Notes under the pieces: model-generated
Told to the model about the DNA's origin: nothing
The model's input: only the letters and a program-made list of their open reading frames with translations
Databases searched by the model: none
DNA from: Thermoplasmata archaeon
GTDB lineage: Archaea > Thermoplasmatota > E2 > DHVEG-1
Direction of reading: 5' to 3'
DNA length: 64,000 nt
NCBI GenBank assembly: GCA_020054495.1
Contig: JAHWGK010000002.1
Span: 16,418 to 80,417 of the forward strand
Program-made: the position numbers and the translations under genes
Part shown: positions 36,062 to 63,838 of the stretch, in pieces
How the letters are laid out: every line of letters starts with the position of its first letter
Numbering within the stretch: position 1 is the stretch's first letter

Positions 36062-36071
36062 ATTTTCCTCT

Positions 36072-36434: not shown

Positions 36435-36445
36435 TAAATTTCACC

Positions 36446-36697
36446 TCATTTCATTCTTTTAATATAGAAGGTCAAGATTGTACCTTCTTTTTCAAATTTT
36501 AATATTTCGTGACCTGTTCTTTTAGCCCACCGTTTAATATCCTCTTCAGCGGCAGGATCATCAGCTTCGACTTTTAATACTTGCCCAACTTCAATTTTAT
36601 CAATTTCTTCCTTTGTCATTGCAATGGGCATAGGGCAATAGTATCCAATACAGTCCAATTCAGCATCAGCAACAATGTCTGAACTCAGATTATACAC
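36446..36697 (-). CDS. tusA: TusA-like sulfurtransferase
   Basis: 83 aa with CPxP motif (CIGYYCPMP). Confidence 0.8.
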   Translation of the reverse strand: MYNLSSDIVADAELDCIGYYCPMPIAMTKEEIDKIEVGQVLKVEADDPAAEEDIKRWAKRTGHEILKFEKEGTILTFYIKRMK

Positions 36698-36703
36698 CTC
36701 TCA

Positions 36704-37213: not shown

Positions 37214-37232
37214 TTATCTTCACCATTTTTTT

Positions 37233-37808: not shown

Positions 37809-37832
37809 TTTTTTTCCTCCAATTCAATCAAA

Positions 37833-38324: not shown

Positions 38325-38357
38325 TTTATTTCACCTAAATATAGTTATTTTTTCTCC

Positions 38358-38894: not shown

Positions 38895-38920
38895 TCAACT
38901 TCCACCATCACAAATTTATT

Positions 38921-39076
38921 CTATTTTATTCGTTTCATTGGCACGCCACAACAATAGGGTGCTGCCTTTGGTTCTTCATCAAATTCTATAATGCTACAAC
39001 TACAATCCTCTGCTGAACATTCGCATTCATATTGTATTGGCTTGTCTGCTTCTTTACAACCACAACTTTTACACAT
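38921..39076 (-). CDS. Cys-rich small protein (51 aa, 11 Cys; desulforedoxin-like CCGVPM motif)
   Basis: Manual translation MCKSCGCKEADKPIQYECECSAEDCSCSIIEFDEEPKAAPYCCGVPMKRIK. GGGAGG SD 9 nt upstream of the ATG. Not in the ORF track. Confidence 0.4.
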   Translation of the reverse strand: MCKSCGCKEADKPIQYECECSAEDCSCSIIEFDEEPKAAPYCCGVPMKRIK

Positions 39077-39109
39077 TTTTCCATACCTCCCTTATATTTA
39101 ACATATTTC

Positions 39110-40171
39110 TCATTTCTTTTTAATTTTTACTAACCTTTTTCCAATTTCTTTAGCTTTTTTTAACTCATTTTGATCGGGAACATAGTTAATATTAATGCTA
39201 TCTAAAGGAAAATCCCAAGATACTTCCTTTAGAATTTTTTCTATTTCACTAACCGCCTGGCCGCCCCAACCATAGGATCCAAAAACTAAACCTATTCGAT
39301 TTTTAGGTTTAAGACCTTTGAGATATGTTAGGAAACCACCCATTGACGGAAGCATTGAATTATTAAACGTAGGAGATCCTATCAGTATATATTTCGAAGT
39401 AATTACATCTGTTATTACATCTGAAATATGGGATGTTTTTAGATCCCTAATAGCAACTGGAATACCTGCTTCTTCGATACCTTCTCGAAGTGAATAAGCT
39501 ATTTTTTCTGTTGAACCCCACATAGAATCGTAAACAATCAATGCTTTATTTTCAGTTTCATATCGGGCCCATTTCGTATATTCTTTGAGGATTTGTGGAA
39601 TCAATGAACGCCATATTATTCCATGGCTTGGTGCAATCATATCGATGTCAAGTCCAGAAATAGCTTCAAGAGCCTTTTCTACTTGACGACCATAAGGCAT
39701 TACGATATTTGCATAATACTTCGCCGCCTCCTCCTTCAAAATCCCCCATTCAATTTCATCATCAAAGCGCCCTGAACTTGCTATATGTTGTCCAAAAGCA
39801 TCATTTGGAAGAAGAAGTTTATCACTGGGAATGTATGTTACCATGGAATCTGGCCAATGAACCATTGGTATTTCAACAAAATGAAGTGTTCTTTTACCTA
39901 TATTGAGTGTATCACCAGATTTTACTACTTTAAAGTTCAAGTCTTTTTTGTAGTGTCTTTTAAGTCCTTTTTCTCCTCTTGTTGAAGTTATAACTGTTGC
40001 ATTTGGACAGAATTCAAGAATTTTTAGTATAGAACCAGAGTGATCCATTTCAACATGGTTTGATATAATATAATCTATCTTTGAAGGATCTGCGATTTCT
40101 TTAATTCTAGTAAGCATTTCATCAAAAAGATAGTGTTTTACTGTATCTACTAATGTTATTTTTTTATCCAT
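39110..40171 (-). CDS. fprA: flavodiiron protein (FprA-type; MBL-like diiron domain + flavodoxin domain)
   Basis: NHVEMDHSG diiron motif, flavodoxin domain (IVYDSMWGSTEKIA). The conserved FDP N-terminus continues in frame upstream to 40288 without ATG/GTG/TTG (see findings). Confidence 0.8.
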   Translation of the reverse strand: MDKKITLVDTVKHYLFDEMLTRIKEIADPSKIDYIISNHVEMDHSGSILKILEFCPNATVITSTRGEKGLKRHYKKDLNFKVVKSGDTLNIGKRTLHFVEIPMVHWPDSMVTYIPSDKLLLPNDAFGQHIASSGRFDDEIEWGILKEEAAKYYANIVMPYGRQVEKALEAISGLDIDMIAPSHGIIWRSLIPQILKEYTKWARYETENKALIVYDSMWGSTEKIAYSLREGIEEAGIPVAIRDLKTSHISDVITDVITSKYILIGSPTFNNSMLPSMGGFLTYLKGLKPKNRIGLVFGSYGWGGQAVSEIEKILKEVSWDFPLDSININYVPDQNELKKAKEIGKRLVKIKKK

Positions 40172-40293
40172 AATTAGGTAAGCATTATACGTTGTACCAC
40201 GGTTTGTTGAGTATCCATGGAAATTACGAATATTCCAGTCAATACCACCGACCCAATAAATATCCTGCTTTATGTCAACCTTATTCAGCTAAA

Positions 40294-40989
40294 TCACTCC
40301 TTTTCAAAATCTTCTTTTCTAGCTCCACAGACCGGACAAACCCAGTCCTCAGGAACATCTTCAAATTTTGTCCCAGGTGCTACTCCATTATCTGGGTCTC
40401 CTTTTTCAGGCTCATATACATAACCACACACTTTGCAAACATATTTGTCCATTTTCTTTTCCTCCTTTTTTCTTGCTCTATCTACTTCGCCACTATAAGT
40501 TGGGGCTGTTTTTGGTGAATATCCTCCTTTTACTTTATGATAAAACTCATAAGTCATTGGTTTTTCTTCAGAAAGTACTTCTGCATCCTCTACATTACCA
40601 ATAAAAATCGTATGTGTGCCAACATCGATTTTATCTATTAATTTCGTTTCTAAGCATGCAAGAGCATAATCTAAAACAAGTGGTACTTTGCTGTTCCCTA
40701 GCTTAAATTCAACGTCCTTAAATTTATCAATATCTCTTCCAGATTTAAACCCAAAATTTCCAATGAAAGTTAATGGTGCTTTTTCTGAAAGAATTGACAC
40801 TGTGAAGCATTTACTTTTTTCTATGTATTCATGTGTTAAATTCTGTTTATTAATACTAACTGCAATTGTCGGTGGTTCAGATGTAATTTGAAATAAAGCA
40901 TTTGCAATCTGCCCATTTATTTTTTCACCTTCTTTTGAACAGACGATGTATAAACCATATGATATTTTATGTAATGTTTTAGGATCCAT
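40294..40989 (-). CDS. hrb: high-molecular-weight rubredoxin (flavin reductase domain + C-terminal rubredoxin), Hrb-like
   Basis: 231 aa. Flavin reductase-like split-barrel N-domain. C-terminal CKVCGY...CPVCGA. Classic partner of FprA. Confidence 0.8.
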
Positions 40990-41413
40990 CCTTGATTTTC
41001 TCCTTGTTCATACATTTTTTACAGATGCCCTTGAAGTATCCGTGCACCTCCTCAACATTATGTCCACATTCCAACATTTTACCTAAATTAGGGCATACAA
41101 CATCTATATCAATAATCCTCCCACATTTTTTACAGAGAAAATGATGATGCATTTCATGTCTAAAATCATATCTATGCTCTAAACCAGATATTGTAATAGA
41201 CTGGATTATACCATGTTTTTCTAGAATTTCTAATGAATTATATACAGTAGTTTTTGATAAAGAAGGATTATTTATTTTTAAATCTTGATATATTTTATCT
41301 GTGGCGGGATGGGTGGAATGTTCATTTAAATATTTTAATATAATTAATCTTTGCGGTGTAACTTTTAGATTCTTTTCTCTTAACATTTTCACATATTTTT
41401 CCAAATAATCCAC
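40979..41413 (-). CDS. Fur family transcriptional regulator (PerR-like)
   Basis: 144 aa. Fur DNA-binding helix ([13 protein letters not shown]), metal sites HEMHHHF, CKKCG...C..C. GTG start. Confidence 0.85.
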
Positions 41414-41871: not shown

Positions 41872-43815
41872 ATGAGTGAGATTGTATGGAGGCCCTCTGA
41901 GGATTATATTGAAAAAGCAAACATAACAAGATTTATGAAAAAACATGATATCAAAGATTATGATGAGTTAATAAAAAGATCAACTGAAGATCTTGAATGG
42001 TTTTGGAATGAAGTTATCAAAGACTTAAATATAGAATGGTACAGACCATATGATAAAGTATTTGATGATTCTAAAGGAATTCAATGGACAAAATGGTTTA
42101 TTGGCGGTAGAATAAATATAGTGCACAATTGTCTTGATAGACATGCAAAATCTGACAAGAAAAACAATATTGCAATTATCTGGGAAGATGAAAACGGAAA
42201 TGTAAGAAAATTAACTTATGTAGAACTTTTTCGAGAAGTTAATAAATTTGCAAATGCATTAAAAGAATTAGGAGTAAAAAAAGGGGACAGAATTGGCATT
42301 TATATGCCAATGGTACCTGAAATTGTAGTCGGTTTTTTGGCAGGGATAAAAATTGGTGCCATAAGTATTCCGATATTTTCTGGTTTTGGAGGACATGCTC
42401 TTGCTTCACGTTTAGATATCGCCGGAGCTAAGATTCTACTTACCGCAGATGGATCTGTCAGAAGAGGTAAGACAGTAGAAATCAAGAAAGAAGCAGATAA
42501 AGCGCTTGATAACGTATCAACTTTGGAACATGTTATAGTCTATAAACGACTTGGGATAGAAATCCCATGGAAAGATAGTAGAGACATATGGTGGGAGGAT
42601 ATTGCCTCTAAAAAATCAGATGAATGCAATACAGAACAAATGAATTCTGAGGATTATGCGATGATAATTTTTTCATCTGGCACAACAGGCAAACCCAAGG
42701 GTACTGTTCACACCCATGGAGGAGCACTTGTCCAGATAGCTAAAGAACTTGGTTACTATTTTGATGTTAAGGACGACGATGTGTTTTTTTGGCTCACCGA
42801 TATCGGTTGGATGATGGGGCCTTGGATGATTATAGGTGTTCAGAATTTTGGTGGAGCCATTGTTATTTTTGAGGGCGCTCCAAACTACCCTAATCCTGAC
42901 AGATTGTGGGAGCTAGTCGAGAGACATAAAATTACTTCATTTGGTATTTCACCGACGGCCATTCGTTTGCTGATGCGATATGGTGACAAATGGGTTAAAA
43001 AACATGATCTTAGTTCGTTGAGATTTTTAGGTTCCACTGGTGAACCCTGGGATCCTGATTCATGGAATTGGTTCTTTGAAAAAGTTGGCAACAAAAAAAT
43101 TCCGATTATAAATATCTCAGGGGGAACAGAAATCGTTGGGTGCTTCTTATCACCACTTCCAATAACAGCTCTTAAGCCTTGTACACTTCGTGGACCCGGC
43201 TTAGGTATGGACATTGATGTTTTTGATGATGATGGAAAACCAATTCGAGGAAAGATGGGGCATCTTGTTGCAAAGAAGCCTGCACCATCAATGACACGTG
43301 GGTTTTGGAATGAGCCTGAAAGATATATTGATACTTATTGGTCTAGATGGCCAAACGTTTGGTATCATGGCGATTGGGCCAAGGTGGATAAAGACGGTTT
43401 TTGGTCTCTACACGGCAGAAGTGACGATACAATAAAAATAGCAGGAAGGCGTACTGGACCTGCTGAAATCGAAGCTGCACTCATTGAACATCCAGCAGTA
43501 TCAGAGGCTGCAACAATTGGTGTACCAGATGAGATAAAAGGGGAAGATATTGTCTGCTTCGTTATGTTAAAACCTGATTATGAGCCTAGCGAAGAGATAA
43601 GAGAAGAACTCAAAGATCAAGTTGTAAAAATAATGGGAAAAACATTAAAACCACGTGATATCAAATTCGTAGGAGATTTGCCAAAAACTAGATCCGCAAA
43701 GATTGTAAGAAGGATTATTAAGGCAGCATTTCTTGGGAGAGAGGTTAGCGATATTTCCTCAGTAGAAAATCCCAATGCAATTGAAGAAATAAAAAAATGC
43801 CATTTGAGTAATTAA
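41872..43815 (+). CDS. acs: acetyl-CoA synthetase (AMP-forming)
   Basis: 647 aa. AMP-binding motif SSGTTGKPKG. Acs-type N-terminus and C-terminal acetylatable Lys region (PKTRSAKIVRR). Confidence 0.9.
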   Translation: MSEIVWRPSEDYIEKANITRFMKKHDIKDYDELIKRSTEDLEWFWNEVIKDLNIEWYRPYDKVFDDSKGIQWTKWFIGGRINIVHNCLDRHAKSDKKNNIAIIWEDENGNVRKLTYVELFREVNKFANALKELGVKKGDRIGIYMPMVPEIVVGFLAGIKIGAISIPIFSGFGGHALASRLDIAGAKILLTADGSVRRGKTVEIKKEADKALDNVSTLEHVIVYKRLGIEIPWKDSRDIWWEDIASKKSDECNTEQMNSEDYAMIIFSSGTTGKPKGTVHTHGGALVQIAKELGYYFDVKDDDVFFWLTDIGWMMGPWMIIGVQNFGGAIVIFEGAPNYPNPDRLWELVERHKITSFGISPTAIRLLMRYGDKWVKKHDLSSLRFLGSTGEPWDPDSWNWFFEKVGNKKIPIINISGGTEIVGCFLSPLPITALKPCTLRGPGLGMDIDVFDDDGKPIRGKMGHLVAKKPAPSMTRGFWNEPERYIDTYWSRWPNVWYHGDWAKVDKDGFWSLHGRSDDTIKIAGRRTGPAEIEAALIEHPAVSEAATIGVPDEIKGEDIVCFVMLKPDYEPSEEIREELKDQVVKIMGKTLKPRDIKFVGDLPKTRSAKIVRRIIKAAFLGREVSDISSVENPNAIEEIKKCHLSN

Positions 43816-43927
43816 GGAGCAATACGTCAATAAACGATAACATTTTTCAACTCGTTTACTATTGCATAATCAAGTGAGGCGGATAGAAAAAAATATTTTT
43901 TCGTCTCATGTCGAAGGATGGTTAGGC

Positions 43928-45178
43928 ATGACAAAAAAAGTTTGTGTAATAGGAGGAGCCACGACACCATTTGATTATGGTCCAACTGGTTTTGAAAGTA
44001 TAGAGGGCGGGGCAGCAGAATGTATAAGGGAGACTAGAGAAGATATTCCAGATTTTTCTATGAGAGATATTGACTTGATGATTTATTCTCATTTTTCCGT
44101 TCATTTTGGACATCAACTCTGCTCTGAATGGATTATCCATGATCATCTAGGTCTTGTTGGAGTTCCACAGTATCGTATCGAAAACGGAGGTAATACCGGT
44201 GGATCGGCATTGTATGCAGCAGCTCTTGCGGTTATGTCTGGTCATCATGATGTCGTTGGTGTTTGCGGATGGGAGACTATGGATTCCGTGTCACAATCTC
44301 AAGGTAGTGAGTTCATTGCACTTGCATCTGATATTAGATATGAACTCCTAGTTGGAGGAATTTATCCAATTTACTATGCTGCAATGGCCAACAAATGGAT
44401 GAAAGATAATAAAGTGACTGAAGCAGATGTTGCAACAATTGGTGCAAAAAACAGAAATAACGCTATGGATAATGCTAAGGCTCAATGGTATAGAAATGAA
44501 CATAAATATATTACTGTGGATGATGTGATGAATTCTCGCCTTATATCATATCCAATTAAGAAGTATGATTGCTGCCTAATGTCACGTGGAGTTGCTTTTC
44601 TTCTTATTTGTTCAGAGGAGTATGCCAAAAAGGTTAATCCTGACGGATATGTCACAATTGATGGTATTGGACTTTCTAGTTGCACTATTCGTGCTGGGGA
44701 TAGATTGAATTTTCCAGGTTGGACAGAACGTTATGGTAAAAACTATCCAGGGATGACTGAATTTGGTGCATGTCGGAGTTCCGCAGATCAAGCGTATAAA
44801 ATGGCAGGAATTGAAAATCCATTAAAAGATATAGATTTTGGTGAGATTCATGATGCATTTTCCACATCAGAGGCGCAGATCTATAAAGCATTGTATCTCG
44901 CTGATGAAAATAACATTGCTCAGTTTCTTCGTGATGAAAGTACACACATGCATGGACAAATACCTATGAATCCCGGTGGGGGATTAATGGGCTATGGCCA
45001 TCCTGTCGGTGCAACTGGTCTTATGAGTGCGATTGAATGTTTCTACCAATTATCAGATTTAATTCCAAAGAAACACCTTAGTAAAAAAACTGAGGTGCCT
45101 GATGCCGAATGTGGTATAGTTAATAGTCACGCTGGAACTGGGACAAGTATTTCTAACTTTATCATGCGGAGGAGTTAA
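43928..45178 (+). CDS. thiolase (archaeal acetyl-CoA C-acetyltransferase type)
   Basis: Start at MTKKVCVIGGATTPF. Thiolase catalytic Cys/His regions. Followed by a DUF35 partner gene, as in archaea. Confidence 0.8.
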   Translation: MTKKVCVIGGATTPFDYGPTGFESIEGGAAECIRETREDIPDFSMRDIDLMIYSHFSVHFGHQLCSEWIIHDHLGLVGVPQYRIENGGNTGGSALYAAALAVMSGHHDVVGVCGWETMDSVSQSQGSEFIALASDIRYELLVGGIYPIYYAAMANKWMKDNKVTEADVATIGAKNRNNAMDNAKAQWYRNEHKYITVDDVMNSRLISYPIKKYDCCLMSRGVAFLLICSEEYAKKVNPDGYVTIDGIGLSSCTIRAGDRLNFPGWTERYGKNYPGMTEFGACRSSADQAYKMAGIENPLKDIDFGEIHDAFSTSEAQIYKALYLADENNIAQFLRDESTHMHGQIPMNPGGGLMGYGHPVGATGLMSAIECFYQLSDLIPKKHLSKKTEVPDAECGIVNSHAGTGTSISNFIMRRS

Positions 45179-45180
45179 TA

Positions 45181-45846
45181 ATGGGCGAGGTGACAATTAT
45201 GAAAAAAAGGAAAAAATTTGCTGAAGAACCGAATTTCACAGAAAAAAAATCTTATAGACCTGAGGGTGTAAAAGAAACAGGCCTTGCTTTTATCGGCCAT
45301 GAAATATCTGAAGATGGAAATGTAATGAATCAATTCCTACATTACGATCAACTATATACTATCAGACATGGGGAGAATAGCAAATTCTTCAAAGGACTTC
45401 TTGAAGGAAAGATTCTGGGTACAAGATGCCCCAAATGCGGTGATATCTGGGTACCTGTCCGTACTCATTGTTGGAATCTCAACTGCAATCTTGAAAAAAC
45501 CGAGTGGTTAGAAATGCCACTAACAGCCAAAGTACATACATGGACTATTGCAGGATGGAGCGGTAGATCATCACTCAAACGATTGCCTATTGTACTCGTC
45601 TATGCAGTCATAGGTAATAGCAATGTAGCTATTGCAAATGAGCTTCATGATATTGAACCTTGGAATGTTGAATTTGGTATGCCTCTAAAGATCGTATTTA
45701 AACCAGAAGAGGAGAGAATCGGTGCTGTCACTGATTTTCACTTTAAACCTGCTGATGGTTGGGAACCATCACCTTGGAATAAAGAAAAGGAACGCATCCA
45801 AAAACTTGTTGAACCTGTTTATGAATGGGTTAAAACATTAAAATAA
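45181..45846 (+). CDS. DUF35 OB-fold/zinc-ribbon protein (thiolase-associated)
   Basis: 221 aa. Rubredoxin-like zinc ribbon CPKCGDIWVPVRTHC..C followed by OB fold. Start overlaps the thiolase stop. Confidence 0.65.
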   Translation: MGEVTIMKKRKKFAEEPNFTEKKSYRPEGVKETGLAFIGHEISEDGNVMNQFLHYDQLYTIRHGENSKFFKGLLEGKILGTRCPKCGDIWVPVRTHCWNLNCNLEKTEWLEMPLTAKVHTWTIAGWSGRSSLKRLPIVLVYAVIGNSNVAIANELHDIEPWNVEFGMPLKIVFKPEEERIGAVTDFHFKPADGWEPSPWNKEKERIQKLVEPVYEWVKTLK

Positions 45847-45890: not shown

Positions 45891-46901
45891 ATGGATTATG
45901 TTTCAGGGGAAATTTTAACTGAGAATGGATTTAAAAGTGGTTACATCGCTTTTGAAAAAGGTAAAATTGCTCAAACTGGAAGTGGTAATTCTCCAAAAAA
46001 GCCAATTTATAAAGGATTAATTGTACCAACTTTTGTTAATGCTCACACTCACATTGGCGATTCTTTTATTAGAGAGAAAAATATTGATTTGCCTAAAAAC
46101 ATTGAAGAATTAGTAGCACCACCTAATGGTCTAAAACATAAGTTATTGCAAGAAGCATCTGATGAAAATATAATTGAAGGAATGGAAAAATCTATAAATA
46201 TTATGATAAAAAGTGGAACAAAATATTTTTATGATTTTAGAGAAAATGGAATTTTAGGAATTAGTCAACTGAAAGCTGCGTTACGTTTATTGAATATAAA
46301 TTCATTCATTCTTTCAAGACCTAACACTTTAAATTATAACAAAAATGAAGTCAATATTTTATTAAAAAATTCAGATGGTATCGCGATAAGCAGTATTTCT
46401 GATTGGGATTATTCAGAACTCCAAAAGATCGCAAGAGATGCAAGAGGAAAAAATAAGATATTTGCTCTTCATGCCAGTGAAAGAGTTAGAGAAAATATTG
46501 ATAATATTTTAGACTTGAAACCAAATTTTTTAGTTCATATGATTAAAGCATCAGAGTCAGATTTTATTAGAGCCAAGGAAAACAAGATTCCAATTATTAT
46601 CTGCCCGAGAGCTAACTCCTTTTATGGTTTAAAGCCAAATTTTAAATTATTAAAAAAAGTTGGAGTTAATCTATTATTTGGAACAGATAATGCAATGTTG
46701 AATTCACCAGTCATTTTAGATGAAATAAATTTTGTTAAATCAATATCAAAAGATTTTTCAACTTTTGAACTTTTATATATGATAACATTTGGGGCAAGGA
46801 AAGCTTTAAATCTAGATTGGGACATTCTTGGTCCCAATTCTAAGGCTGACTTTGCAGTATTGGAAAAAAAATCATTAAAGCCTTTATATATTTCAACTTG
46901 A
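45891..46901 (+). CDS. amidohydrolase-family metal-dependent hydrolase
   Basis: 336 aa. HxH motif FVNAHTHIGDS, downstream His/Asp ligands (LHASE, GTDN). Confidence 0.65.
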   Translation: MDYVSGEILTENGFKSGYIAFEKGKIAQTGSGNSPKKPIYKGLIVPTFVNAHTHIGDSFIREKNIDLPKNIEELVAPPNGLKHKLLQEASDENIIEGMEKSINIMIKSGTKYFYDFRENGILGISQLKAALRLLNINSFILSRPNTLNYNKNEVNILLKNSDGIAISSISDWDYSELQKIARDARGKNKIFALHASERVRENIDNILDLKPNFLVHMIKASESDFIRAKENKIPIIICPRANSFYGLKPNFKLLKKVGVNLLFGTDNAMLNSPVILDEINFVKSISKDFSTFELLYMITFGARKALNLDWDILGPNSKADFAVLEKKSLKPLYIST

Positions 46902-46913
46902 TAAATAAGAGGG

Positions 46914-47759
46914 ATGAATGTGAAAGTAGAAGAGGTGATGTCAGAGAATTTAATTATAGGATACGTCCCAGGTACAGTTAGAGACGCGTTAGCGATACTT
47001 GCAAAGAATAATGTTTCAGGTATGCCTATTTTAAAAAAAGATACAAAAGTGGTTGTAGGGATTTTAACTAGAACTGATATTTTCAGAAATCCTGAGGAAG
47101 ATCAAATAGCATTGATTATGAGTGAAGATTATCAGTATGTTGAAAAAGAAAAAGATGTTAAATATGCAGCTAAGCTATTGTATGAGCATAGAATACATGG
47201 TTTACCAGTAATTAATAACCGAAAAAATCTTATTGGCATCATAAGTCCAACAGACATATTACGCAGTGTACATAAGAATATAACTGAAAACATTGAAAAG
47301 CATTTCACTAATTTAGTTGTTCCAATTTATCAAGATACTCCAATCAATATTGTAATGGAAATTATCAGTGTTACACATGAACATGCACTTCCTGTTTTGA
47401 ATGACGAACGGAAGTTAATCGGGATTGTAACTGATGGAGATTTGTTTAAACTTACTCATATCCGCGAAAGCGTTTCTCAAACAAACCTTGGAATGGGTGG
47501 AGATGAGGACGCTTGGACTTGGGAAGGAATACGAGATACAGTAAGATTACATTATTCAACATCAGAAGTTTCCTTACCACAAGTTGCTGTTAAAGAGGTT
47601 ATGATTACTGATGTGAAAAAAGCATACACAAATACACCTGTAAATGATATTGCAGATATAATGCTTAATAACAATATTAGTCACATACCTGTTGTTGACT
47701 CTAATGATAGACTAATTGGCATGGCTACGGACATTGATTTAATGGCCTGCATGTTTTAA
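46914..47759 (+). CDS. CBS-domain protein (four CBS modules)
   Basis: 281 aa. Repeated CBS patterns (GMPIL, GLPVIN, LPVLN, IPVVD). Confidence 0.8.
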   Translation: MNVKVEEVMSENLIIGYVPGTVRDALAILAKNNVSGMPILKKDTKVVVGILTRTDIFRNPEEDQIALIMSEDYQYVEKEKDVKYAAKLLYEHRIHGLPVINNRKNLIGIISPTDILRSVHKNITENIEKHFTNLVVPIYQDTPINIVMEIISVTHEHALPVLNDERKLIGIVTDGDLFKLTHIRESVSQTNLGMGGDEDAWTWEGIRDTVRLHYSTSEVSLPQVAVKEVMITDVKKAYTNTPVNDIADIMLNNNISHIPVVDSNDRLIGMATDIDLMACMF

Positions 47760-47810
47760 ATCCTATAATCTTATTCTATTTTTAATTTCAAGATTTGGAG
47801 ACTTTCGTTT

Positions 47811-49460
47811 ATGCCTCAAGATATTTATGATAAAATCATGATGCTTGCAAAAAGAAGAGGTTTCATCTATCCCTCCTTTGAAATCTATGGCGGTGTTGCT
47901 GGTTTTTATGATTACGGCCCACTAGGATCTCAACTTAAACTGAATATCGAAAACCTTTGGCGTAAATTCTACCTGCTTAAAGACAACTGTATCGAAATTA
48001 TTACTCCAACTATAACATTACATGAAGTTTTGAAAGCTTCTGGGCATGTTGACGAGTTTACTGATTTTACTGTGGATTGTAAAAAATGTAAACAATCCTA
48101 TAAAGTTGAGGATGTTATAGATGATGATATCGGTATTGAAGCGGCGTTAAAGGAAAATAAAGTGAAATGCCCGAATTGTGGTACTAATCTAAAAGATGCT
48201 TATCCTGTTAATCTTATGTTTTCCACTAAAATTGGAATCGGAAGTGCCAGGGATGCTTTTCTTAGACCCGAGACCGCTCAGGGTATATTTACGGATTTTC
48301 ATCTTCTTTATAGATATGCCCGCGAGAAGTTACCCTTTGGAGTTGTACAGATTGGTGAAGGATATAGAAACGAGGTATCACCTCGCCAAGGTATCATTAG
48401 ACTCAGAGAATTTTCAATGGCCGAAGCAGAGATCTTTTTTGATCCGAAAGATAAAACACATCCTAATTTTGGAAGCATTAAGAATAAAGAACTATATCTT
48501 TTTGATAATGAAAAAGAAATTAAACTTTCAATTGAAAAAGCTGTCAAAACCAAGGTGATTAACAACCAGGCACTTGCATATTATATGTATCTCACACAGG
48601 ATTTTCTAATGACTGCAGGAATTGATCCTAAAAAATTTAGATTTAGGAAACATGCACCAGATGAACTAGCTCATTATGCCACAGAGTGCTGGGATGCAGA
48701 AATATTCAGTGAGAGATTTGGCTGGATAGAATGTGTTGGTATCGCAGATAGATCTGCATATGATTTACGTTCACATATCGATTCATCAGGAACAGATATG
48801 TATGCTTTAAGGAAATATGATAACCCAAAGACTGTTGAAGTAAAAAAGATCGTTCCAAATATGGGCAAATTAGGGCCACTTTTTAAAGGAGAAGTTGGAA
48901 TGATCAAAACATTACTTGAAAACATGGAAGTAAAAGATACAAAAAAGATTTCTGTTAACCTTGATGGTAAGACTATAAAGATACCTAATGAGTGCTATAA
49001 AATAACAGAAACTAAAGAAAAGGTAGCTGGTGAGAAGTTTGTACCTCATGTAATCGAACCATCTTATGGAATTGACAGAATTTTGTATTGTTTAATTGAG
49101 CATAACTATCATGAAGGTAAGAAAAAAGAAGAAGAATATAGAATGCTCAAATTTAATCCAATAATTGCTCCAATAAAAATTGGGGTTCTTCCGCTTATTA
49201 GTGACGAAAGACTTATTAAAATCGCAAATGAAATTGATAGAAATCTTAGAGATGCTGGTATAACAACATATTATGATGAAAGTGGGTCAATAGGTCGACG
49301 TTATGCCAGAATGGATGAAGTAGGAACGCCGTTTTGTATTACAATTGATCATGATACATTAAAGAATAATACTGTGACTATTAGGAATCGTGATACTACA
49401 AAGCAGATTAGAATAAAAATAGATGAAATTACGAGTTATCTAGCATCTAAAGTAAATTAG
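47811..49460 (+). CDS. glyS: glycine--tRNA ligase, archaeal/eukaryotic alpha2 type
   Basis: 549 aa. N-terminal MLAKRRGFIYPSFEIYGGVAGFYDYGPLG. Class II motifs. Internal zinc-finger insertion CKKC...CPNCG. Confidence 0.9.
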   Translation: MPQDIYDKIMMLAKRRGFIYPSFEIYGGVAGFYDYGPLGSQLKLNIENLWRKFYLLKDNCIEIITPTITLHEVLKASGHVDEFTDFTVDCKKCKQSYKVEDVIDDDIGIEAALKENKVKCPNCGTNLKDAYPVNLMFSTKIGIGSARDAFLRPETAQGIFTDFHLLYRYAREKLPFGVVQIGEGYRNEVSPRQGIIRLREFSMAEAEIFFDPKDKTHPNFGSIKNKELYLFDNEKEIKLSIEKAVKTKVINNQALAYYMYLTQDFLMTAGIDPKKFRFRKHAPDELAHYATECWDAEIFSERFGWIECVGIADRSAYDLRSHIDSSGTDMYALRKYDNPKTVEVKKIVPNMGKLGPLFKGEVGMIKTLLENMEVKDTKKISVNLDGKTIKIPNECYKITETKEKVAGEKFVPHVIEPSYGIDRILYCLIEHNYHEGKKKEEEYRMLKFNPIIAPIKIGVLPLISDERLIKIANEIDRNLRDAGITTYYDESGSIGRRYARMDEVGTPFCITIDHDTLKNNTVTIRNRDTTKQIRIKIDEITSYLASKVN

Positions 49461-55835: not shown

Positions 55836-56597
55836 CTAGGAGCATTGTTTACATAGTGTTTTAAATTTACACCAATCACACAACCTTGAAGGATTTGCAG
55901 GGAACTTTTCAGCGTTCTCGATAACATCTATTAATTCAATAGTGTCCTGTTTTAATTCTTCAAGCCCATCATCTGTTCTAGTGGCATCAATCTCCTTGTT
56001 GAATTTTAGGAAATGTCAAATCAAACGAACATCTTTGATATCTGGATATCTCTGTTTTATGCCAATTGAATAGAGTGCCAACTGTCTATCATTTTCAATA
56101 GTTTCTAAAGAAGGCAACCGTGAGCATGTCTTATAATCGTGTATCTCATAACAACCATCCTCTATCTCTGTAAGTCTATCAATATAACCACATAGTTTGT
56201 ACTCACCAGATTCATCTAGATTTATGAGAATACGTTCTTCAAGCGCAATAGTTCTTCCCTGATCAAATGGTTTATACATTTTGTAGTAGTTAGTGATACA
56301 TCTTTCAGCTATCAACAGATAGTCTTTAGGACGATATTTCTCCTTTACAATCACAATCAAGTCATTCCAGTTTTTAGTCCATCGAATATGTAAAAAAACA
56401 AGCAAATCTTCCAAAGTATTTTCTTTTTGATATTGAATATCACGATATAATTTTTTCAAGGTTTCATGGACTCTTTTACCAAGAAATAGTTCAATGCTTT
56501 CTCTTGTTTCTGTTTTTACCTTGTCAGTATATTGGAGTTTATATTTTTGTGGACATTGTTCATAGCAGCTTAAACGGGAATGAGAACAAATTGTCAT
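55836..56597 (-). pseudogene. Cas4/RecB-like PD-(D/E)XK nuclease interrupted by in-frame TGA (56016-56018)
   Basis: The 193-aa ORF carries N-terminal Cys (YEQCPQKY), catalytic D...EIHDYKT and QLALY. The same frame after the TGA encodes 59 aa ending with the Fe-S motif CDWCKFKTLC. Confidence 0.55.
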
Positions 56598-57567: not shown

Positions 57568-58887
57568 TTAGTAAAAAACAAGCGTATCATCAATGATTTC
57601 AAGTGCTTTATCAATTTCCTCAGAAGAAATAATCAATGGTGGACGGAATCTAATTGTATTTGCTCCACATCCAATAACGATTAAACCATTTGCATATAAT
57701 TTGTCTTTCAGCTCATTCCTCTTTTTGGCGTTTGGTAGATCAAACGCACACATAAGACCTAGTCCTCGAACATTAGATATTTTATCTTGATGCTTTTGAG
57801 CAAGTTTTTCAAGACCTTCTAAAAGACGTTTTCCCTGCAATTCTGCATTTTTTATTAGATTCTCTTCTTTTATCACTTCAAGATATTTTTGGCAGCGAAC
57901 CATATCAACAAGATTTCCACCCCAGGTAGAGTTGAGTCTACTTGAAATATTAAAAACATTTTCTTTGATTTCATCTACCCGATTACTAACCATAATCCCG
58001 CATACTTGTGTTTTTTTTCCAAAGGCAAGTATATCAGGCGTAAAACCAAAATGTTCGTGAGCCCACATCTTACCAGTCAGTCCAACACCAGTTTGTATTT
58101 CATCTAATATGAACATCATTTCATGTTTGTCACAAAGTCTTCTCAGCTCTAAGAAAAATTCTTTTCTAAAATGATTATCTCCACCCTCACCCTGAATAGG
58201 TTCAATAATAAGAGCGGCAATATCATTTGGATTTTCTGAAATAGCGGTTTCTATTTCAGATACTGCCTGTTTTTCAAGTTCTTTTACTTTTTCTAGGTTT
58301 TCTTTGTTTAAAGGATATGTAATCTTTGGATTTATGATACGTGGCCAATTAAATTTTGTAAAATATTTAGTCTTATCAGTATTAAACGTATTTGTCATTG
58401 AAAGTGTATAACCTGTTCTACCATGGAATGCTTCGTTAAAATGTATGACTTTTGTGCCAAGTTTTTCACTGTCTTCTTTTTCAATGTTTTTTCTCACCTT
58501 CCAGTCAAATGCAGTTTTCAATCCGTTCTCAACTGCTAGTGCACCACCACTGATAAAAAAAAGATGTTTGAAATAATTTGGCACTGCATGTTTTGCAAAA
58601 CTATTAACAAATTCTGACATTTCTGTAGTATATATATCAGAGTTGGTTGGCTTGTTTACTGCAACTTCTCCAATTTTTTTTATAAACTCTGGAGTGGTAA
58701 GTTTAGGATGATTACAACCTAGGGGGGCTGAAGCAAAAAAGGAGAAACAATCAATCATATATCTCCCAGTTCTTGAATCATAGATTTGGCATCCCTTGCT
58801 TTTTTTTAAATCTAAAACAAGGTCAAAACCATCTGCAAGTATATATTTGGCGAGTGTTTTATGTACATTTGTTGGCTCAATTGTCAT
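57568..58887 (-). CDS. lat: L-lysine epsilon-aminotransferase (class III PLP aminotransferase)
   Basis: 439 aa. Close block-by-block match to characterised LAT (DLVLDL, FFISGGALAVENGLKTAFDWK, EPIQGEGGD, PDILAFGKKTQVCG, NSTWGGNL, GLMCAF, IRFRPPL). Confidence 0.85.
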   Translation of the reverse strand: MTIEPTNVHKTLAKYILADGFDLVLDLKKSKGCQIYDSRTGRYMIDCFSFFASAPLGCNHPKLTTPEFIKKIGEVAVNKPTNSDIYTTEMSEFVNSFAKHAVPNYFKHLFFISGGALAVENGLKTAFDWKVRKNIEKEDSEKLGTKVIHFNEAFHGRTGYTLSMTNTFNTDKTKYFTKFNWPRIINPKITYPLNKENLEKVKELEKQAVSEIETAISENPNDIAALIIEPIQGEGGDNHFRKEFFLELRRLCDKHEMMFILDEIQTGVGLTGKMWAHEHFGFTPDILAFGKKTQVCGIMVSNRVDEIKENVFNISSRLNSTWGGNLVDMVRCQKYLEVIKEENLIKNAELQGKRLLEGLEKLAQKHQDKISNVRGLGLMCAFDLPNAKKRNELKDKLYANGLIVIGCGANTIRFRPPLIISSEEIDKALEIIDDTLVFY

Positions 58888-59067: not shown

Positions 59068-61017
59068 CTATTTTAAGTCCACACTGTTGATTTCACTAAG
59101 ATCCTCCAAATCGTTCATTTTAACCATGTTATCAGAAATCGTGTAGAGAACATCACCAATGTATAATGAACGAATTACATCAAATGAAGATGAACCCCAA
59201 TACCACCGATATTCATCTAAGAATTCGTCATCATCCATGTGAGTTATTTGACCTCTAAATTCAAAGCCGTTTTCTAAAGATAACCTATAAACAAATGCAC
59301 CTTGGAATGTAAACTTACCATAAGTACTTCCAGTATAGCCGTTGTTTTGCTCTTTGATTTCATCACTGATTTCATAAAGACTAATAGGTAGAACTAGTAA
59401 TTCTCGTTCTCTGTCAAAGAGAAAAGCTTTATGCTCATAAAGGACAGGACTATCTGTTCCTCGGTCACCAATTGTAATCTTTGCTACTTCTTTTGGATTA
59501 TTAAAGTCACTAACATCAAATAATGCAATTTTAAGACCTTGGTACCAAGCAAAATTACCAGAACTTGATTCCACTGTGTCTTTTCCAATGCCAATAATAT
59601 GGTTTTCATCAAAGGGGTGTAGGTAATCAGAGTAACCTGGAATCTTTAGTATACCAAGAATTTTTGGATTATACGGGTCAGATAAATCAAGTGTAAAGAA
59701 TGGATCAACTTTTTTGAAAGTTACAAGATATGCTTTATTACCCATAAATCGGGCAGAGTGCATCCTTTCACCAGGGGCAATATTTTCAATCTCAGATGTA
59801 CGATTCATATCCTCATCTAGTATATACAGGTTAGTAGTAGAATCATACCATTTCTGAGTTGCAATTCTAAAAAATCCGTTATGTTCATCCATAGAAAATT
59901 GATTTAAAGTATCTCCGGGAACTTTTCCTTTGGCTATGTAATCAATATTTCCATTTTCAATTGAAATCTTGTGTATTATTGTTGCTTCCTCATAGTGATA
60001 ATCATCTCCCCATAAAGAGCAATAATAGCTATATTCTTGACATGCTAAGAAAATATTGTTATTTGATACATACATATTTTGCGAATTACCAAGTAGGAAG
60101 CTTTTTTGATCTACTTCATCTCCATAAATATCAATTGAAATAATGTGGGTCATTGAGTCAATTTTTTCAGAGTTGTTTACATAATAAATATCCTCAATAG
60201 GAATACATCTCGTATAATCATTAATCGTTATCTCAGGTATGTTAATTGTAATATTATCCTCAAGTTTATAATATATATTACTAGTATACTCGGTAGTAAT
60301 GATATAGATATAATTACCTATCATTCTTGCATTAAAAAATGATCCATCAGCCTCAATGTCTCTAATAAGCTCTGGAACTTCTCTATCAGATATATCATAA
60401 ATATTAATAACAGTAGTTGAAATTCCCCACCAATATGGACAATATCCATAGATAGTTTTACAATCTACATGTTCATGGGAATCTCTTTGAGAATTACCAA
60501 AAGCAATCAAACGATCCTTGTTTATGAAAAAGTTTTGAACATTGACATCATCTTCAAAATTGATAATTGATAAAACTGTTGCCGATTCTGCCGGGTAGGC
60601 TTTTATTATGTAAATCTTAGAATCTACTAAAATATACAGATACGCTCCATCTGTTTTTACTAAATCTGGCTCATCAACACCTTCAACTTGTATATTTGTT
60701 TTAGAGTAATCAACAATTTTTCCATTCCCAAAACTATCAGACATGAATCCATTTCTTCCGTTATTTGATTGCGATATCAATATTTTTGGAGCAAAATCGC
60801 TCTCTTCATAGCCCCAACTATTATATTTATAGGTATTACTTCCTAAAAAATCGATAAATTCATCATATGAATCAAAAGTGTTTAACCCAGCATATGTTCT
60901 ATACCAACCTGAACCGCCTATTACCACAGGTTGTACATTAATAGCACAGGCAAAGCTTACAATGATAATAACTCCTGCAAGCATCATTCCGCTTATTTTC
61001 AAATTTTTACTTTTCAT
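59068..61017 (-). CDS. secreted beta-propeller domain protein (PF09826-like)
   Basis: 649 aa. Signal peptide. YSKTNIQVEGVDEPDLVKTDGAYLYIL motif typical of the archaeal/bacterial beta-propeller family. Confidence 0.55.
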   Translation of the reverse strand: MKSKNLKISGMMLAGVIIIVSFACAINVQPVVIGGSGWYRTYAGLNTFDSYDEFIDFLGSNTYKYNSWGYEESDFAPKILISQSNNGRNGFMSDSFGNGKIVDYSKTNIQVEGVDEPDLVKTDGAYLYILVDSKIYIIKAYPAESATVLSIINFEDDVNVQNFFINKDRLIAFGNSQRDSHEHVDCKTIYGYCPYWWGISTTVINIYDISDREVPELIRDIEADGSFFNARMIGNYIYIITTEYTSNIYYKLEDNITINIPEITINDYTRCIPIEDIYYVNNSEKIDSMTHIISIDIYGDEVDQKSFLLGNSQNMYVSNNNIFLACQEYSYYCSLWGDDYHYEEATIIHKISIENGNIDYIAKGKVPGDTLNQFSMDEHNGFFRIATQKWYDSTTNLYILDEDMNRTSEIENIAPGERMHSARFMGNKAYLVTFKKVDPFFTLDLSDPYNPKILGILKIPGYSDYLHPFDENHIIGIGKDTVESSSGNFAWYQGLKIALFDVSDFNNPKEVAKITIGDRGTDSPVLYEHKAFLFDRERELLVLPISLYEISDEIKEQNNGYTGSTYGKFTFQGAFVYRLSLENGFEFRGQITHMDDDEFLDEYRWYWGSSSFDVIRSLYIGDVLYTISDNMVKMNDLEDLSEINSVDLK

Positions 61018-61162: not shown

Positions 61163-62485
61163 TTATAAAATTTCTATTTTTTCATCAAACTTAATACCTA
61201 TATCTTCTAATTCATCTAGAATTGGATTATAGATTCCAGGAGTTACAGGAATGTGAACACCAGTTAAGCAAATTTCTCCATTAAGAATCATTTTTACAGC
61301 CATTGCTGCGGGTAGTGAAACTGTTCGTGCAATGGAAGAGTCATCATCAGGTATGCCATAATCAAGTAACGTTGAGGTGATGTACTCCTTTTTAGATGGA
61401 TATTCTGCTATGAACTCATGATGCATAACTATCATATCTCTTTCATTTTTATCAAGAGACATCTTACTTAACGTCAAAACGTTAAGATAATCTAACGGAT
61501 TATCGCGATCTTTAGGTAGTTCTTTATCGCTAAAGAGACCTAACCATTCAAGTCTTTTTATAACTGTTGAATATGTTTCTATATCAAGGAATTTTGCTGT
61601 TGCTTTTACAATATCATCTTTTTGACCAGCACCAACAAGATGCCTAGTTAAATCACCATATGTTTTACCAGAGAAATTCTTTATAGGTTCTTCACCTAGC
61701 CAACCAAGAGCAACTATTTTCCGCATGGTTTCACACCAACCTGTCATCCTAAAGGTTCCCCGATAAACAGTGTGTGCATCTTTCAAATCATAGATGTTTT
61801 TGTAAGGGGTAGAATTTCTATTTGGGTAGTTCTCAAATGATCCAATTCCTGGAACATCTTGCATCGTATAATTCTCAAATAATTGTTCACCAGGATATGA
61901 TACCTTTTTTCCGTCTTGTAGCCACTCTGAAGCATTTTTTGAAGCTAAAAGAACTCCACGGGGTGCCCATGAAAACTTGTAGCCAAATGGATTGTTGTTT
62001 GCTTCGTGTGATGGCAGAGCGCCAGTTGTAGATTTGAAACTTACAATCTTCCCACCATTGTTTTTAACTTTATGAATAATTTTCATTGCAGACATGTGAT
62101 CAATACCGGGGTCAAGACCACACTCATTGAGAATAAGAATATCAGCATCCTTTGCTTTTTTGTCTAGTTCATTCATCTCATTGCTTACATATGAGGTTGT
62201 AACCAGGTGTTTTTTATGTTTGATACAAAGTTTTGCAACCTTTACATGGAAAGGATATGGAAGAAAACTTACAGAAAGATCTGATTCGGAAATTAATTTT
62301 TCTAATAAATTGTCATCAGTGACATTAAGCGGAATTGCTGTTCCATCAGGGTGACCATTAAGTATCTTCTCTACTTTACTAACTGTTCTACTTGCCATTG
62401 TTACAAAACAATCTGGTTGATCTAAAAGATACCTCACAAGCGGTCTTGAAACCATTCCTGCCCCGAGAACCAATATTTTTTTCAT
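61163..62485 (-). CDS. saccharopine dehydrogenase (NADP+, glutamate-forming) / saccharopine reductase; homolog of AASS SDH domain and fungal LYS9
   Basis: Start at MKKILVLGAGMVS (GGGAG SD). GLDPGIDHM, GYPNRNSTPY and TGVHIP blocks align with the human AASS C-terminal half. Confidence 0.85.
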   Translation of the reverse strand: MKKILVLGAGMVSRPLVRYLLDQPDCFVTMASRTVSKVEKILNGHPDGTAIPLNVTDDNLLEKLISESDLSVSFLPYPFHVKVAKLCIKHKKHLVTTSYVSNEMNELDKKAKDADILILNECGLDPGIDHMSAMKIIHKVKNNGGKIVSFKSTTGALPSHEANNNPFGYKFSWAPRGVLLASKNASEWLQDGKKVSYPGEQLFENYTMQDVPGIGSFENYPNRNSTPYKNIYDLKDAHTVYRGTFRMTGWCETMRKIVALGWLGEEPIKNFSGKTYGDLTRHLVGAGQKDDIVKATAKFLDIETYSTVIKRLEWLGLFSDKELPKDRDNPLDYLNVLTLSKMSLDKNERDMIVMHHEFIAEYPSKKEYITSTLLDYGIPDDDSSIARTVSLPAAMAVKMILNGEICLTGVHIPVTPGIYNPILDELEDIGIKFDEKIEIL

Positions 62486-62539
62486 AAGTATACTCCCTTC
62501 TGAATAATATAAAACGTTCATGCAGCGAAAAGAATTCAC

Positions 62540-63838
62540 TTATAAATATTTGTTGATATAGCTGTAATTTGGTGTCAGTTCACCACGATGTAATACCACA
62601 GCATTTTTTATCTCAGGTGGTAACTCTAATCTATCAAAATCCACGTTATAGCTGGCCTTAACAATGGCAGGAACAAAACTAAATAGAGAATCACTAAAAA
62701 CCTGTGAAGATTCTTTTGGCACTTCACATGGAAGATTATCTACAGCCATAACAACCACACCGCTGCCCGCATATCCCTCTTTAATTTCGCCACTTAAGTG
62801 ATTATAAACAAAAATAGGATTATCAGGGGGAGTAGCTTTTTCAGTGAATTCAATTGCACCGTTAATATCAACACTAATATCACCAACAATCTGGAGTTTG
62901 GAACGATCGTTGTAGTTTTCCTTCATAAACTCCTTGGAAATAAGACGAGGGTACTGTTTATTCCAATAAATGCAATTCATAAGAATAGATAAACGAGGAA
63001 GATATCGATGAAAAACAGAACGATACAAATGAGGATGATTATAATACTCCTGTAGCTTAAAATTTTTTCCACTAGAAATAGGTTCCACCATATCTTCTTC
63101 TTTAAAAACTACTTTATAGATAACTCTATCTGAAAAGTTCTTATGAATAGCTTCAAGTTGCTTAGGAGTAATCTCTTTTATAGGTAAAATATCAAGAATT
63201 TCTTGGCCACCCTGTGATACATTTCCATAACCTGCAAATCCTACAACTAAAGGAGTTAATGAATCAGGAAGTCCCTCTTGTTCAATTCTATTTCCAACTT
63301 CTTTTAAGTGAATCTTTGTTTTATTAAGATCTTGGTAATAAATCGTTTGTTTTATTTTACTAAATGGTGTGTTTATTCCTTTCCATTTCATCCTTTGTCC
63401 AAATGCCCAAAGTGTATCAATCATTCCTGCAAGACCCGCGAATCTCCCAAAAAAAACTAAACGACGACCTTTTTCATCAGTAATCTTTTCATAGTCAATT
63501 AAATTACATTTAAGTTCCATCATTTTTTTTAACATGGGCATATTATAGCTCTGACCCTTGATTGTATGAGAAAAAAACACATATGTTTTACCAGGTTCAA
63601 AGAAATTAGTTGGAACCTCTTTTACAGCAAAAACAACAGAAGATTTTGATAAATCTTCATCTATATAAGCTCCGGCAGATTCGTATTCTTTATTAGCAAA
63701 TACTCTGATTTGTGATGGTTGAATTATTGTTTTAACACCATGTCTTTCTTTCAATTCCTTTATATGTTCGGGTGTTAATGGAACGCGTCTTTCCCACCTG
63801 TTTTTATCTTCTCTACGGATGCCTAGTATAAACTCCAT
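62540..63838 (-). CDS. lysine-ketoglutarate reductase / saccharopine dehydrogenase (lysine-forming); homolog of AASS LKR domain and fungal LYS1
   Basis: 432 aa. IRREDKNRWERRVPLTPEHIKEL, FFSHTIKGQ, LIDYEKI, GFAGYGNVSQG align with the human AASS N-terminal domain. Confidence 0.85.
   Translation of the reverse strand: MEFILGIRREDKNRWERRVPLTPEHIKELKERHGVKTIIQPSQIRVFANKEYESAGAYIDEDLSKSSVVFAVKEVPTNFFEPGKTYVFFSHTIKGQSYNMPMLKKMMELKCNLIDYEKITDEKGRRLVFFGRFAGLAGMIDTLWAFGQRMKWKGINTPFSKIKQTIYYQDLNKTKIHLKEVGNRIEQEGLPDSLTPLVVGFAGYGNVSQGGQEILDILPIKEITPKQLEAIHKNFSDRVIYKVVFKEEDMVEPISSGKNFKLQEYYNHPHLYRSVFHRYLPRLSILMNCIYWNKQYPRLISKEFMKENYNDRSKLQIVGDISVDINGAIEFTEKATPPDNPIFVYNHLSGEIKEGYAGSGVVVMAVDNLPCEVPKESSQVFSDSLFSFVPAIVKASYNVDFDRLELPPEIKNAVVLHRGELTPNYSYINKYL

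Follow-up and report, generated by a model that had tools for sequence, protein, structure and literature searches.

Why should an archaeon carry, side by side, genes for both halves of the eukaryotic bifunctional aminoadipate-semialdehyde synthase (AASS) and, on the same strand, a gene for a transaminase predicted to perform the same net conversion of lysine? The question is raised by four consecutive minus-strand open reading frames (ORFs) in the 64-kb stretch of Thermoplasmata archaeon DNA analysed here (hereafter the window), which lie at 62540-63838 (432 aa), 61163-62539 (458 aa as delimited mechanically), 59068-61017 (649 aa) and 57568-58887 (439 aa). An earlier note on this DNA had read the first two as eukaryote-type enzymes of the saccharopine pathway, lysine-ketoglutarate reductase (LKR) and saccharopine dehydrogenase (SDH), and the last as an L-lysine 6-transaminase (LAT). 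We favour, with slightly better than even confidence, the interpretation that LKR, SDH and LAT would break lysine down to aminoadipate semialdehyde along two parallel routes, in an organism that ferments peptides. The features of the cluster are as follows.

62540-63838, minus strand: lkr, AASS-type lysine-ketoglutarate reductase (saccharopine dehydrogenase of the L-lysine side), 432 aa; Pfam AlaDh_PNT_N and AlaDh_PNT_C, alignment with the human AASS LOR domain
62486-62539, minus strand: lkr-sdh spacer, 54 nt; sequence read directly
61163-62485, minus strand: sdh, saccharopine dehydrogenase (L-glutamate/aminoadipate-semialdehyde side), 440 aa; alignments with LYS9 and human AASS-SDH, Pfam
59068-61017, minus strand: secreted beta-propeller protein, 649 aa; PF09826 (Pfam Beta_propel), E 4e-163
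57568-58887, minus strand: lat, L-lysine 6-transaminase (class III, dependent on pyridoxal phosphate, PLP), 439 aa; TIGR03251, 664.1 bits against a cutoff of 520.8

Identity of the predicted enzymes

The homology of the two genes to the halves of AASS was confirmed by full-length matches on both sides. The LOR domain of human AASS (PDB 8dda/8e8u; human residues 25-463) matches LKR residues 4-429 with an E value of ~1e-76, and the alignment extends into the human C-terminal segment 451-470, which is required for activity (PMC9490328). Because structures of fungal LYS1 match only the N-terminal residues 7-148 of LKR (142 residues, E ~3e-15), while the match to the AASS LOR domain is full-length, we assign LKR to the AASS/LKR subtype and not to the LYS1 subtype. 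The active site is preserved in both alignments: LKR R18, K73, E74, H91, K94, E117 and R126 correspond to R18, K77, E78, H96, K99, E122 and R131 of yeast LYS1, and LKR R18, K73, H91, K94, Q96 and R126 to R39, K93, H111, K114, Q116 and R146 of human AASS, of which K93 and H111 are catalytic and R39, R146, Q116 and K114 bind saccharopine according to cryo-EM (PMC13174811). When 46 prokaryotic homologues are aligned, conservation at the active-site positions of LKR is complete or no lower than 90%. A TATA-like TTTTAAAA is found ~40 nt 5' of the lkr ATG.

SDH (residues 2-437) aligns full-length with LYS9 of M. grisea (1e5l, E 2.4e-94) and of yeast (2axq, E 3.9e-89), as well as with the SDH domain of human AASS (E 1.9e-82), and exceeds the cutoffs of the Pfam models Sacchrp_dh_NADP (78.5 bits) and Sacchrp_dh_C (253.5 bits); with the longer mechanical ORF as query the three E values are 1.7e-94, 3.6e-90 and 1e-82. 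A relation to both LYS1 and LYS9 had been proposed; it holds for SDH, which matches LYS9 end to end, but not for LKR, whose subtype leaves a fungal-type end of the pathway unsupported. The Arg of the SDH block YPNRNST, previously given as GYPNRNST and actually reading NYPNRNST, and the second Arg of YRGTFR take the positions of human R703 and R726 (YPNRDST and LRGTLR in the human protein), which hold two saccharopine carboxylates (PMC13174811). The mechanical SDH ORF opens with a GTG at 62539 that adds 18 residues found in no homologue or public gene call. The ATG at 62485 is preceded, 8 nt upstream, by a Shine-Dalgarno-like GAAGGGAG; the 440-aa product begins with MKKILVLGAG, its homologues begin with M-K-K-[IV]-L-V-L-G-A-G, and the exact product is contained in public gene calls. 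Translation almost certainly starts at this ATG, which places lkr and sdh 54 nt apart and not, as had been described, directly abutting.

The Pfam families of both proteins contain members with different substrates, and neither LKR nor SDH was picked up by an NCBIfam equivalog model, so the pair might conceivably act on another opine-type imine or on a polyamine precursor (compare carboxynorspermidine dehydrogenase and homospermidine synthase). However, the closest solved relatives are all true LKR or SDH enzymes that match over their full length (E 1e-76 to 1e-94), as the earlier note had expected, and neither alanine dehydrogenase (E only 2e-5 against LKR) nor the generic fold member PH1688 (only 1e-10 against SDH) comes near them. 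All residues that bind the three saccharopine carboxylates are conserved, and the assigned chemistry is further supported because the two enzymes, whose pairing is conserved, share saccharopine as their sole common metabolite. We regard substrates other than those of the saccharopine pathway as very improbable.

The assignment of LAT also stands, since the TIGR03251 model (LAT_fam) covers residues 5-436 of its 439 residues, that is, end to end. In the window, lat lies 2.3 kb downstream of sdh.

A prokaryotic module and its linkage to LAT

We searched 1.84 billion cluster representatives with LKR (E<=1e-30) and retrieved 696 clusters, the closest of which consist of monofunctional proteins of ~430 aa with up to 53% identity, with bifunctional proteins (880-1250 aa, ~38-47% identity) ranking after them. 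In a pattern scan that covered one genome for each GTDB species, and from which the best-matching genome loci (L001 etc.) were taken, at least 598 species genomes proved to have a confirmed LKR relative. The best 80 of these are headed by Thermoplasmatota (51-66% identity), followed mostly by uncultivated anaerobic bacteria (50-58%) of the Anaerolineae, Cloacimonadota, Zixibacteria, Marinimicrobia, Bipolaricaulota, Aminicenantes, Ignavibacteria/Melioribacteraceae and Bacteroidales. In 73 of these 80 loci the next gene after LKR, in the same orientation, encodes an SDH homologue; of the other seven, five are cut off by a contig edge. A plasmid collection searched by tblastn yielded only two distant (~30%) matches, both from Persicobacter. 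We conclude that the predicted lkr-sdh pair stands on its own as a module widely distributed among prokaryotes.

Most bacterial loci contain the pair without LAT. Other omega-aminotransferases stand beside it in a few of them: an ornithine aminotransferase (passing TIGR01885) in Cloacimonadota (L019, L070) and in a metagenome-assembled genome (MAG) of Chloroflexota (L074), and a GabT-like class-III aminotransferase in a Bipolaricaulota MAG (L039). An ornithine or GabT-like class-III aminotransferase also adjoins lkr-sdh in L021, echoing the archaeal linkage to LAT.

In 12 related Thermoplasmatota loci a LAT orthologue (68-79% identity) follows SDH at a distance of 0.1-9 kb, being directly adjacent (~100-200 nt) in L009, L013 and L014, 0.7 kb away in L011 and 2.4-7.4 kb away elsewhere. 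The gap between SDH and LAT is mostly occupied by secreted beta-propeller or PKD-type genes in the related archaeal loci, and PF09826 homologues, sometimes in two copies, are located between SDH and LAT or just 5' of LKR in nine of them (L004, L006, L007, L008, L009, L010, L012, L013 and L015). Where LKR, SDH and LAT are contiguous, the PF09826 gene is missing downstream of SDH. The beta-propeller gene of the window interrupts the cluster, probably without having a role in the lysine pathway, and an lkr-sdh-lat cluster is the likely ancestral state in the clade. As judged from these genomes, the conserved linkage of the three predicted enzymes is specific to archaea resembling the Thermoprofundales, a group also known as MBG-D. 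The literature that combines saccharopine with Thermoplasmata or archaea contained, in our searches, no discussion of an LKR-SDH-LAT cluster.

It should be noted that genes for PD-(D/E)XK or Cas4-like nucleases flank the cluster on both sides in this clade (window 56016-56597; L001 4715-5212; L003 7944-8477). No CRISPR array was seen in the window.

Direction and purpose of the predicted reactions

In the catabolic direction, LKR would condense L-lysine with 2-oxoglutarate and reduce the imine to saccharopine, and SDH would oxidise saccharopine on the other side of the nitrogen, yielding glutamate and 2-aminoadipate 6-semialdehyde, the latter in equilibrium with piperideine-6-carboxylate (P6C). 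LAT would lead from the same substrates to the same products in a single PLP-dependent step. By either route the epsilon-amino group would be moved onto 2-oxoglutarate, and the carbon skeleton could pass through 2-aminoadipate and 2-oxoadipate into acyl-CoA metabolism, with lysine synthesis presumably served separately by the LysW-type aminoadipate pathway. The substrate, the direction of flux and the downstream steps are predictions from sequence and gene context.

Several observations argue for catabolism. The characterised AASS-subtype LKRs of animals, plants and Ruegeria pomeroyi are catabolic (PMC9490328; PMC4334477), and we favour this direction because LKR is of the AASS type and its gene has LAT, or in other genomes another catabolic aminotransferase, for a linked neighbour. 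It is also favoured because of the peptide-fermenting lifestyle of the group, the Thermoprofundales being described as degraders of peptides and amino acids (PMC6461988), because of the histidine-utilisation genes and amino-acid permease found within 10 kb of the pair in relatives, and because the window contains a separate LysW entry to lysine synthesis. The window also encodes a C25 (gingipain-like) peptidase, two acyl-CoA dehydrogenases and a thiolase. Two routes between lysine and the semialdehyde had been thought unusual, a view that does not extend to bacteria, as R. pomeroyi combines the saccharopine pathway with a lysine dehydrogenase (PMC4334477).

The genes that bear on lysine synthesis and export are the following.

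15764-15910, minus strand: lysW, amino-group carrier of prokaryotic aminoadipate lysine biosynthesis; PF21344 (Zn_ribbon_LysW), 42.7 bits against a cutoff of 27
14627-15748, minus strand: homocitrate synthase, directly downstream of lysW; TIGR02146 (LysS_fung_arch), 434.1 bits against a cutoff of 413.55; Pfam HMGL-like and HCS_D2
5323-5952: LysE-family protein

The LysW protein combines CxxC...CxxC with an acidic C-terminus ending in GPSEE. All three genes had been noticed before and their assignments hold, but their inclusion in one locus with lkr-sdh does not, since lysW and the homocitrate synthase gene lie ~45 kb and the LysE-family gene ~55 kb from the pair; lysW and the homocitrate synthase gene form a separate, distant unit. 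Genes for lysX/Z/Y/J/K, homoaconitase and homoisocitrate dehydrogenase are not in the 64-kb window; the annotations of related Thermoprofundales MAGs list lysJ and LYSN (LysN, 2-aminoadipate transaminase; PMC6461988, supplementary table). At 13111-15910, lysW and the homocitrate synthase gene lie directly upstream of the C25 peptidase gene, whose mechanical ORF overlaps the 3' end of the homocitrate synthase gene by 29 nt.

A number of observations weigh against the catabolic interpretation. Two enzymes plus LAT, in conserved linkage, look redundant for one net reaction. Neither the 64-kb window nor any archaeal locus, to a distance of ~8 kb from the pair, contains an aminoadipate-semialdehyde dehydrogenase of the aldehyde dehydrogenase family, and clustering of 952 neighbouring ORFs from 82 loci revealed no recurrent partner apart from the aminotransferases and no recurrent aldehyde dehydrogenase. 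Housekeeping genes make up most of the bacterial neighbours, and in many bacteria the pair resides among such genes (hrcA-grpE-dnaK-dnaJ, cysS), which carry no catabolic signal. Finally, SDH fits the NADP motif class of LYS9, a fungal reductase that works in the biosynthetic direction, and not the NAD (Asp) class of AASS.

This last point derives from the residue at which human AASS-SDH contacts the adenosine of NADH, Asp512 (PMC13174811). In the alignment Asp512 corresponds to SDH R33, within the motif A31-S-R-T34, where the fungal NADP-dependent LYS9 has A-C-R-T. We take the R-T of A-C-R-T to contact the 2'-phosphate in the M. grisea structure. Of 65 prokaryotic SDH partners, 62 carry the motif A-[ST]-R-T, and R-T is missing from 33 of 34 eukaryotic bifunctional proteins. 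Because the motif is shared with the fungal NADP enzyme and Asp512 is replaced by Arg, the prokaryotic SDH is probably NADP-linked. Asp-type motifs suggestive of NAD (ADIE, ADLD and GDVS) are present in the SDH of L049 and L063 (both Saccharicenans) and of L067 (Bacteroidetes); a check for covariation between LKR and SDH found that these three loci retain an unchanged K-E motif in LKR. Their SDH motifs look like a natural switch of cofactor.

The cofactor signals of LKR conflict. The contacts of human AASS LKR to the 2'-phosphate of NADPH are T224, S266 and R267 (PMC13174811), which align with LKR Y204, K246 and E247. Among 76 prokaryotic LKRs, G-Y-G and the Glu are invariant (76/76) and the post-beta2 position is K or R in 67; the basic residue at this canonical position would argue for NADPH and the Glu for NAD. 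We considered the conserved Glu as a signature of NAD and withdrew it, given the K/R at the canonical post-beta2 position and the variability of the T224/S266/R267 columns among the eukaryotic bifunctional, NADPH-using proteins.

These signatures bear on the reverse, fungal-like direction, in which SDH would reduce the semialdehyde together with glutamate at the expense of NADPH and LKR would oxidise saccharopine to lysine and 2-oxoglutarate, the pair forming a lysine-producing or salvage end fed with semialdehyde from another source. The A-S-R-T of SDH is equivalent to the ACRT of LYS9, with Arg in place of human D512; the PDB name of that LYS9 enzyme is 'Saccharopine dehydrogenase [NADP(+), L-glutamate-forming]', and LYS9 is a slightly better match to SDH (320 bits) than human AASS-SDH is (281 bits). 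The invariant Glu of LKR at the position of human R267 could indicate NAD, as in LYS1, although the K/R at the post-beta2 position is compatible with NADPH, and the lack of a semialdehyde dehydrogenase near the cluster would fit a pathway running the other way. However, the first enzyme is not of the LYS1 type, and the SDH tree described below gives no specific relationship of the prokaryotic proteins to LYS9. A source of free semialdehyde is also lacking: no LYS2-type (large adenylating) aminoadipate reductase was found among the scanned window genes, the semialdehyde of the LysW pathway stays bound to its carrier, and synthesis from the product of the adjacent LAT, which is made from lysine, would be circular. 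The genome moreover already has a LysW entry, with lysJ annotated in relatives. We consider the lysine-forming direction unlikely.

A related possibility is a closed redox loop, in which LAT would run forward and SDH and LKR back via saccharopine, with lysine as the catalytic carrier of a hydride shuttle between NADPH and NADH. LAT and the LKR-SDH pair share exactly the same substrates and products, and the linkage of the genes has been kept over 59-79% protein identity, with contiguity in L009, L013 and L014. The loop requires different nicotinamide cofactors for the two dehydrogenases, and SDH does carry an NADP signature while Y204/K246/E247 of LKR differ from the human NADPH site T224/S266/R267; if LKR also used NADPH, the loop would be futile. 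The proposal is purely inferential, and no such cycle was found in the literature searched. In addition, most bacteria have the pair without LAT, and cyclisation of the semialdehyde to P6C would disfavour the return reaction. We judge this loop quite improbable. Taken jointly, that an NADP-type SDH runs reductively, whether in a closed lysine/saccharopine/semialdehyde loop or in a reversed LYS9/LYS1-like branch, seems to us improbable; if true, it would provide an anaerobic archaeon with a soluble NADPH/NADH hydride shuttle or with a salvage step that regenerates lysine.

The catabolic direction might also be used for its products, with lysine passing via P6C to pipecolate or 2-aminoadipate as compatible solutes in saline sediment. 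Lysine catabolism in R. pomeroyi responds to salt, with aminoadipate as an osmolyte (PMC4334477), and pipecolate is osmoprotective in several bacteria (PMC6397837). That no downstream degradative genes lie near the cluster would agree with an early product accumulating, and the isolate names of some relatives (GSL, Guaymas) point to marine or hypersaline sites. Yet the window contains neither a reductase for P6C or pyrroline-5-carboxylate nor an aminoadipate-semialdehyde dehydrogenase, and the module is also present in freshwater, bioreactor and subsurface lineages. A role in solute production is in our view doubtful, and we retain degradation of lysine through LKR-SDH and LAT as the preferred reading.

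Host, origin and comparison with known systems

The host is, as had been stated, an archaeon; an Asgard-like lineage, which had been suggested as well, is contradicted by the data. The glycyl-tRNA synthetase (GlyRS) of the window shares 77% identity with its counterpart in Thermoplasmatales archaeon CP070712.1 and 69% with the one in SM1-50, which with SG8-52-4 belongs to the Thermoprofundales (MBG-D) MAGs (PMC6461988), and the LAT/GlyRS/CBS/amidohydrolase neighbourhood of the CP070712.1 and SM1-50 genomes is recognisable at 45891-49460. Because of this identity and local gene order, we place the host, a sediment archaeon, in the Thermoplasmatota, related to Thermoprofundales/MBG-D and not to Asgard archaea. 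The named homologues closest to LKR come from MAGs labelled 'Thermoplasmatales archaeon', and the exact LKR protein recurs in Logan assemblies. The C25 peptidase and an oxidative-stress block typical of anaerobes are consistent with such a host.

This block, at 29018-41413, is dense and contains four rubrerythrin-type proteins, a peroxiredoxin, a nitroreductase, an FTR-like protein carrying a rubredoxin domain, a hybrid-cluster protein (32130-33794) with a ferredoxin partner, a flavodiiron-like protein (39110-40171) and a flavin reductase-rubredoxin fusion (40294-40989). At 26732-28074, a stand-alone LPG_synthase_C protein (the aminoacyl-tRNA-dependent transferase domain of MprF, E 2.5e-50) is encoded directly 3' of a GNAT acetyltransferase, a pairing that is unusual for an archaeon. 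Two divergent acyl-CoA dehydrogenases are encoded in the regions 21377-23729 and 41872-45846, their top NCBIfam matches being acryloyl-CoA reductase and non-decarboxylating glutaryl-CoA dehydrogenase, both under the cutoff; these regions also contain an AMP-forming acyl/acetyl-CoA synthetase and a pair of an archaeal thiolase and an OB-fold (ChsH2-like) protein. Their genes are possible candidates for downstream acyl-CoA steps. A scan of the window for tRNA and Rfam families found no RNA genes.

The description of the enzymes as eukaryote-type is not supported by phylogeny. Neighbour-joining (distance) trees of LKR (432 columns) and SDH (440 columns), rooted at the midpoint and computed with no support values, are rough and indicative only. 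In both, the Thermoprofundales-like sequences form one clade nested in a bacterial radiation, two other Thermoplasmatota sequences (L021, L083) are placed elsewhere among bacteria, and the eukaryotic bifunctional AASS proteins, fungal LYS9 among them, lie on the opposite side of the root; the prokaryotic SDH proteins are not specifically related to LYS9. LKR identity between archaea and bacteria reaches 58%, and because this nearly equals the identity within the archaeal clade (59-66%), it suggests transfer between domains. Within the clade, LKR and GlyRS identities to relatives are 67 versus 77% (CP070712.1) and 61 versus 69% (SM1-50), and because LKR thus tracks GlyRS, vertical descent after the acquisition is suggested. 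Based on these results, we propose that the ancestor of the clade probably obtained lkr-sdh from bacteria by horizontal transfer. The trees link the archaeal genes to no eukaryotes specifically and carry no signal of an archaeal (Asgard) ancestry of the eukaryotic saccharopine pathway; the tempting connection to eukaryogenesis is unsupported and has been removed.

These findings assign a concrete lysine-handling module to Thermoprofundales/MBG-D-like archaea, which are among the most abundant sediment archaea and are regarded as protein degraders; the text of the main genomic paper on the group mentions neither lysine nor saccharopine (PMC6461988). They also show the saccharopine pathway of animals and plants to be a common two-gene module of uncultivated anaerobic prokaryotes, as predicted from its genes, which matters when 'AASS' annotations of the KEGG type are read in metagenomes. 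Smaller points of interest are the NADP-type signature that nearly all prokaryotic SDH partners show and the close linkage to LAT.

The nearest parallel is found in Silicibacter/Ruegeria pomeroyi, for which neighbouring lkr and sdh genes and LKR activity are reported (Serrano 2012 FEBS Lett 586:905; Neshich 2013 ISME J 7:2400, as related in papers citing them). According to these accounts the genes are, as in the window, separate, monofunctional and unfused, with an AASS-type LKR, and the organism has a second route from lysine to the semialdehyde, lysine dehydrogenase there and LAT here. The two systems, compared by description and not by sequence, differ in that the window belongs to an anaerobic archaeon in which the second route is physically linked and no aasadh lies nearby.

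Eukaryotic AASS (PDB 8dda, 8e8u, 5l78) is homologous to the archaeal proteins over the full length of both halves (~38-47% identity), with the catalytic Lys and His, the saccharopine-binding arginines and the C-terminal helix region of LKR all aligned. It differs in being one protein where the archaeon has two genes, in the Asp512 that stands in place of the R-T of SDH and in the T224/S266/R267 that stand in place of Y204/K246/E247 of LKR, and the eukaryotic proteins form a separate clade. Fungal LYS9 is ~39-41% identical to SDH and shares the NADP-type motif A-C/S-R-T, but groups with the eukaryotic SDH domains and not with the prokaryotic clade; fungal LYS1, which is NAD-dependent and lysine-forming, shares its catalytic residues with LKR, but LKR is of the longer AASS subtype.

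LAT is known from actinomycetes, Flavobacterium and mycobacteria, and the window protein, which passes TIGR03251, differs from these in its clustering with lkr-sdh. In beta-lactam clusters, LAT is accompanied by a piperideine-6-carboxylate dehydrogenase. Overall, the archaeal lkr-sdh pair is a member of a known prokaryotic module, to which the linkage of LAT is a clade-specific addition.

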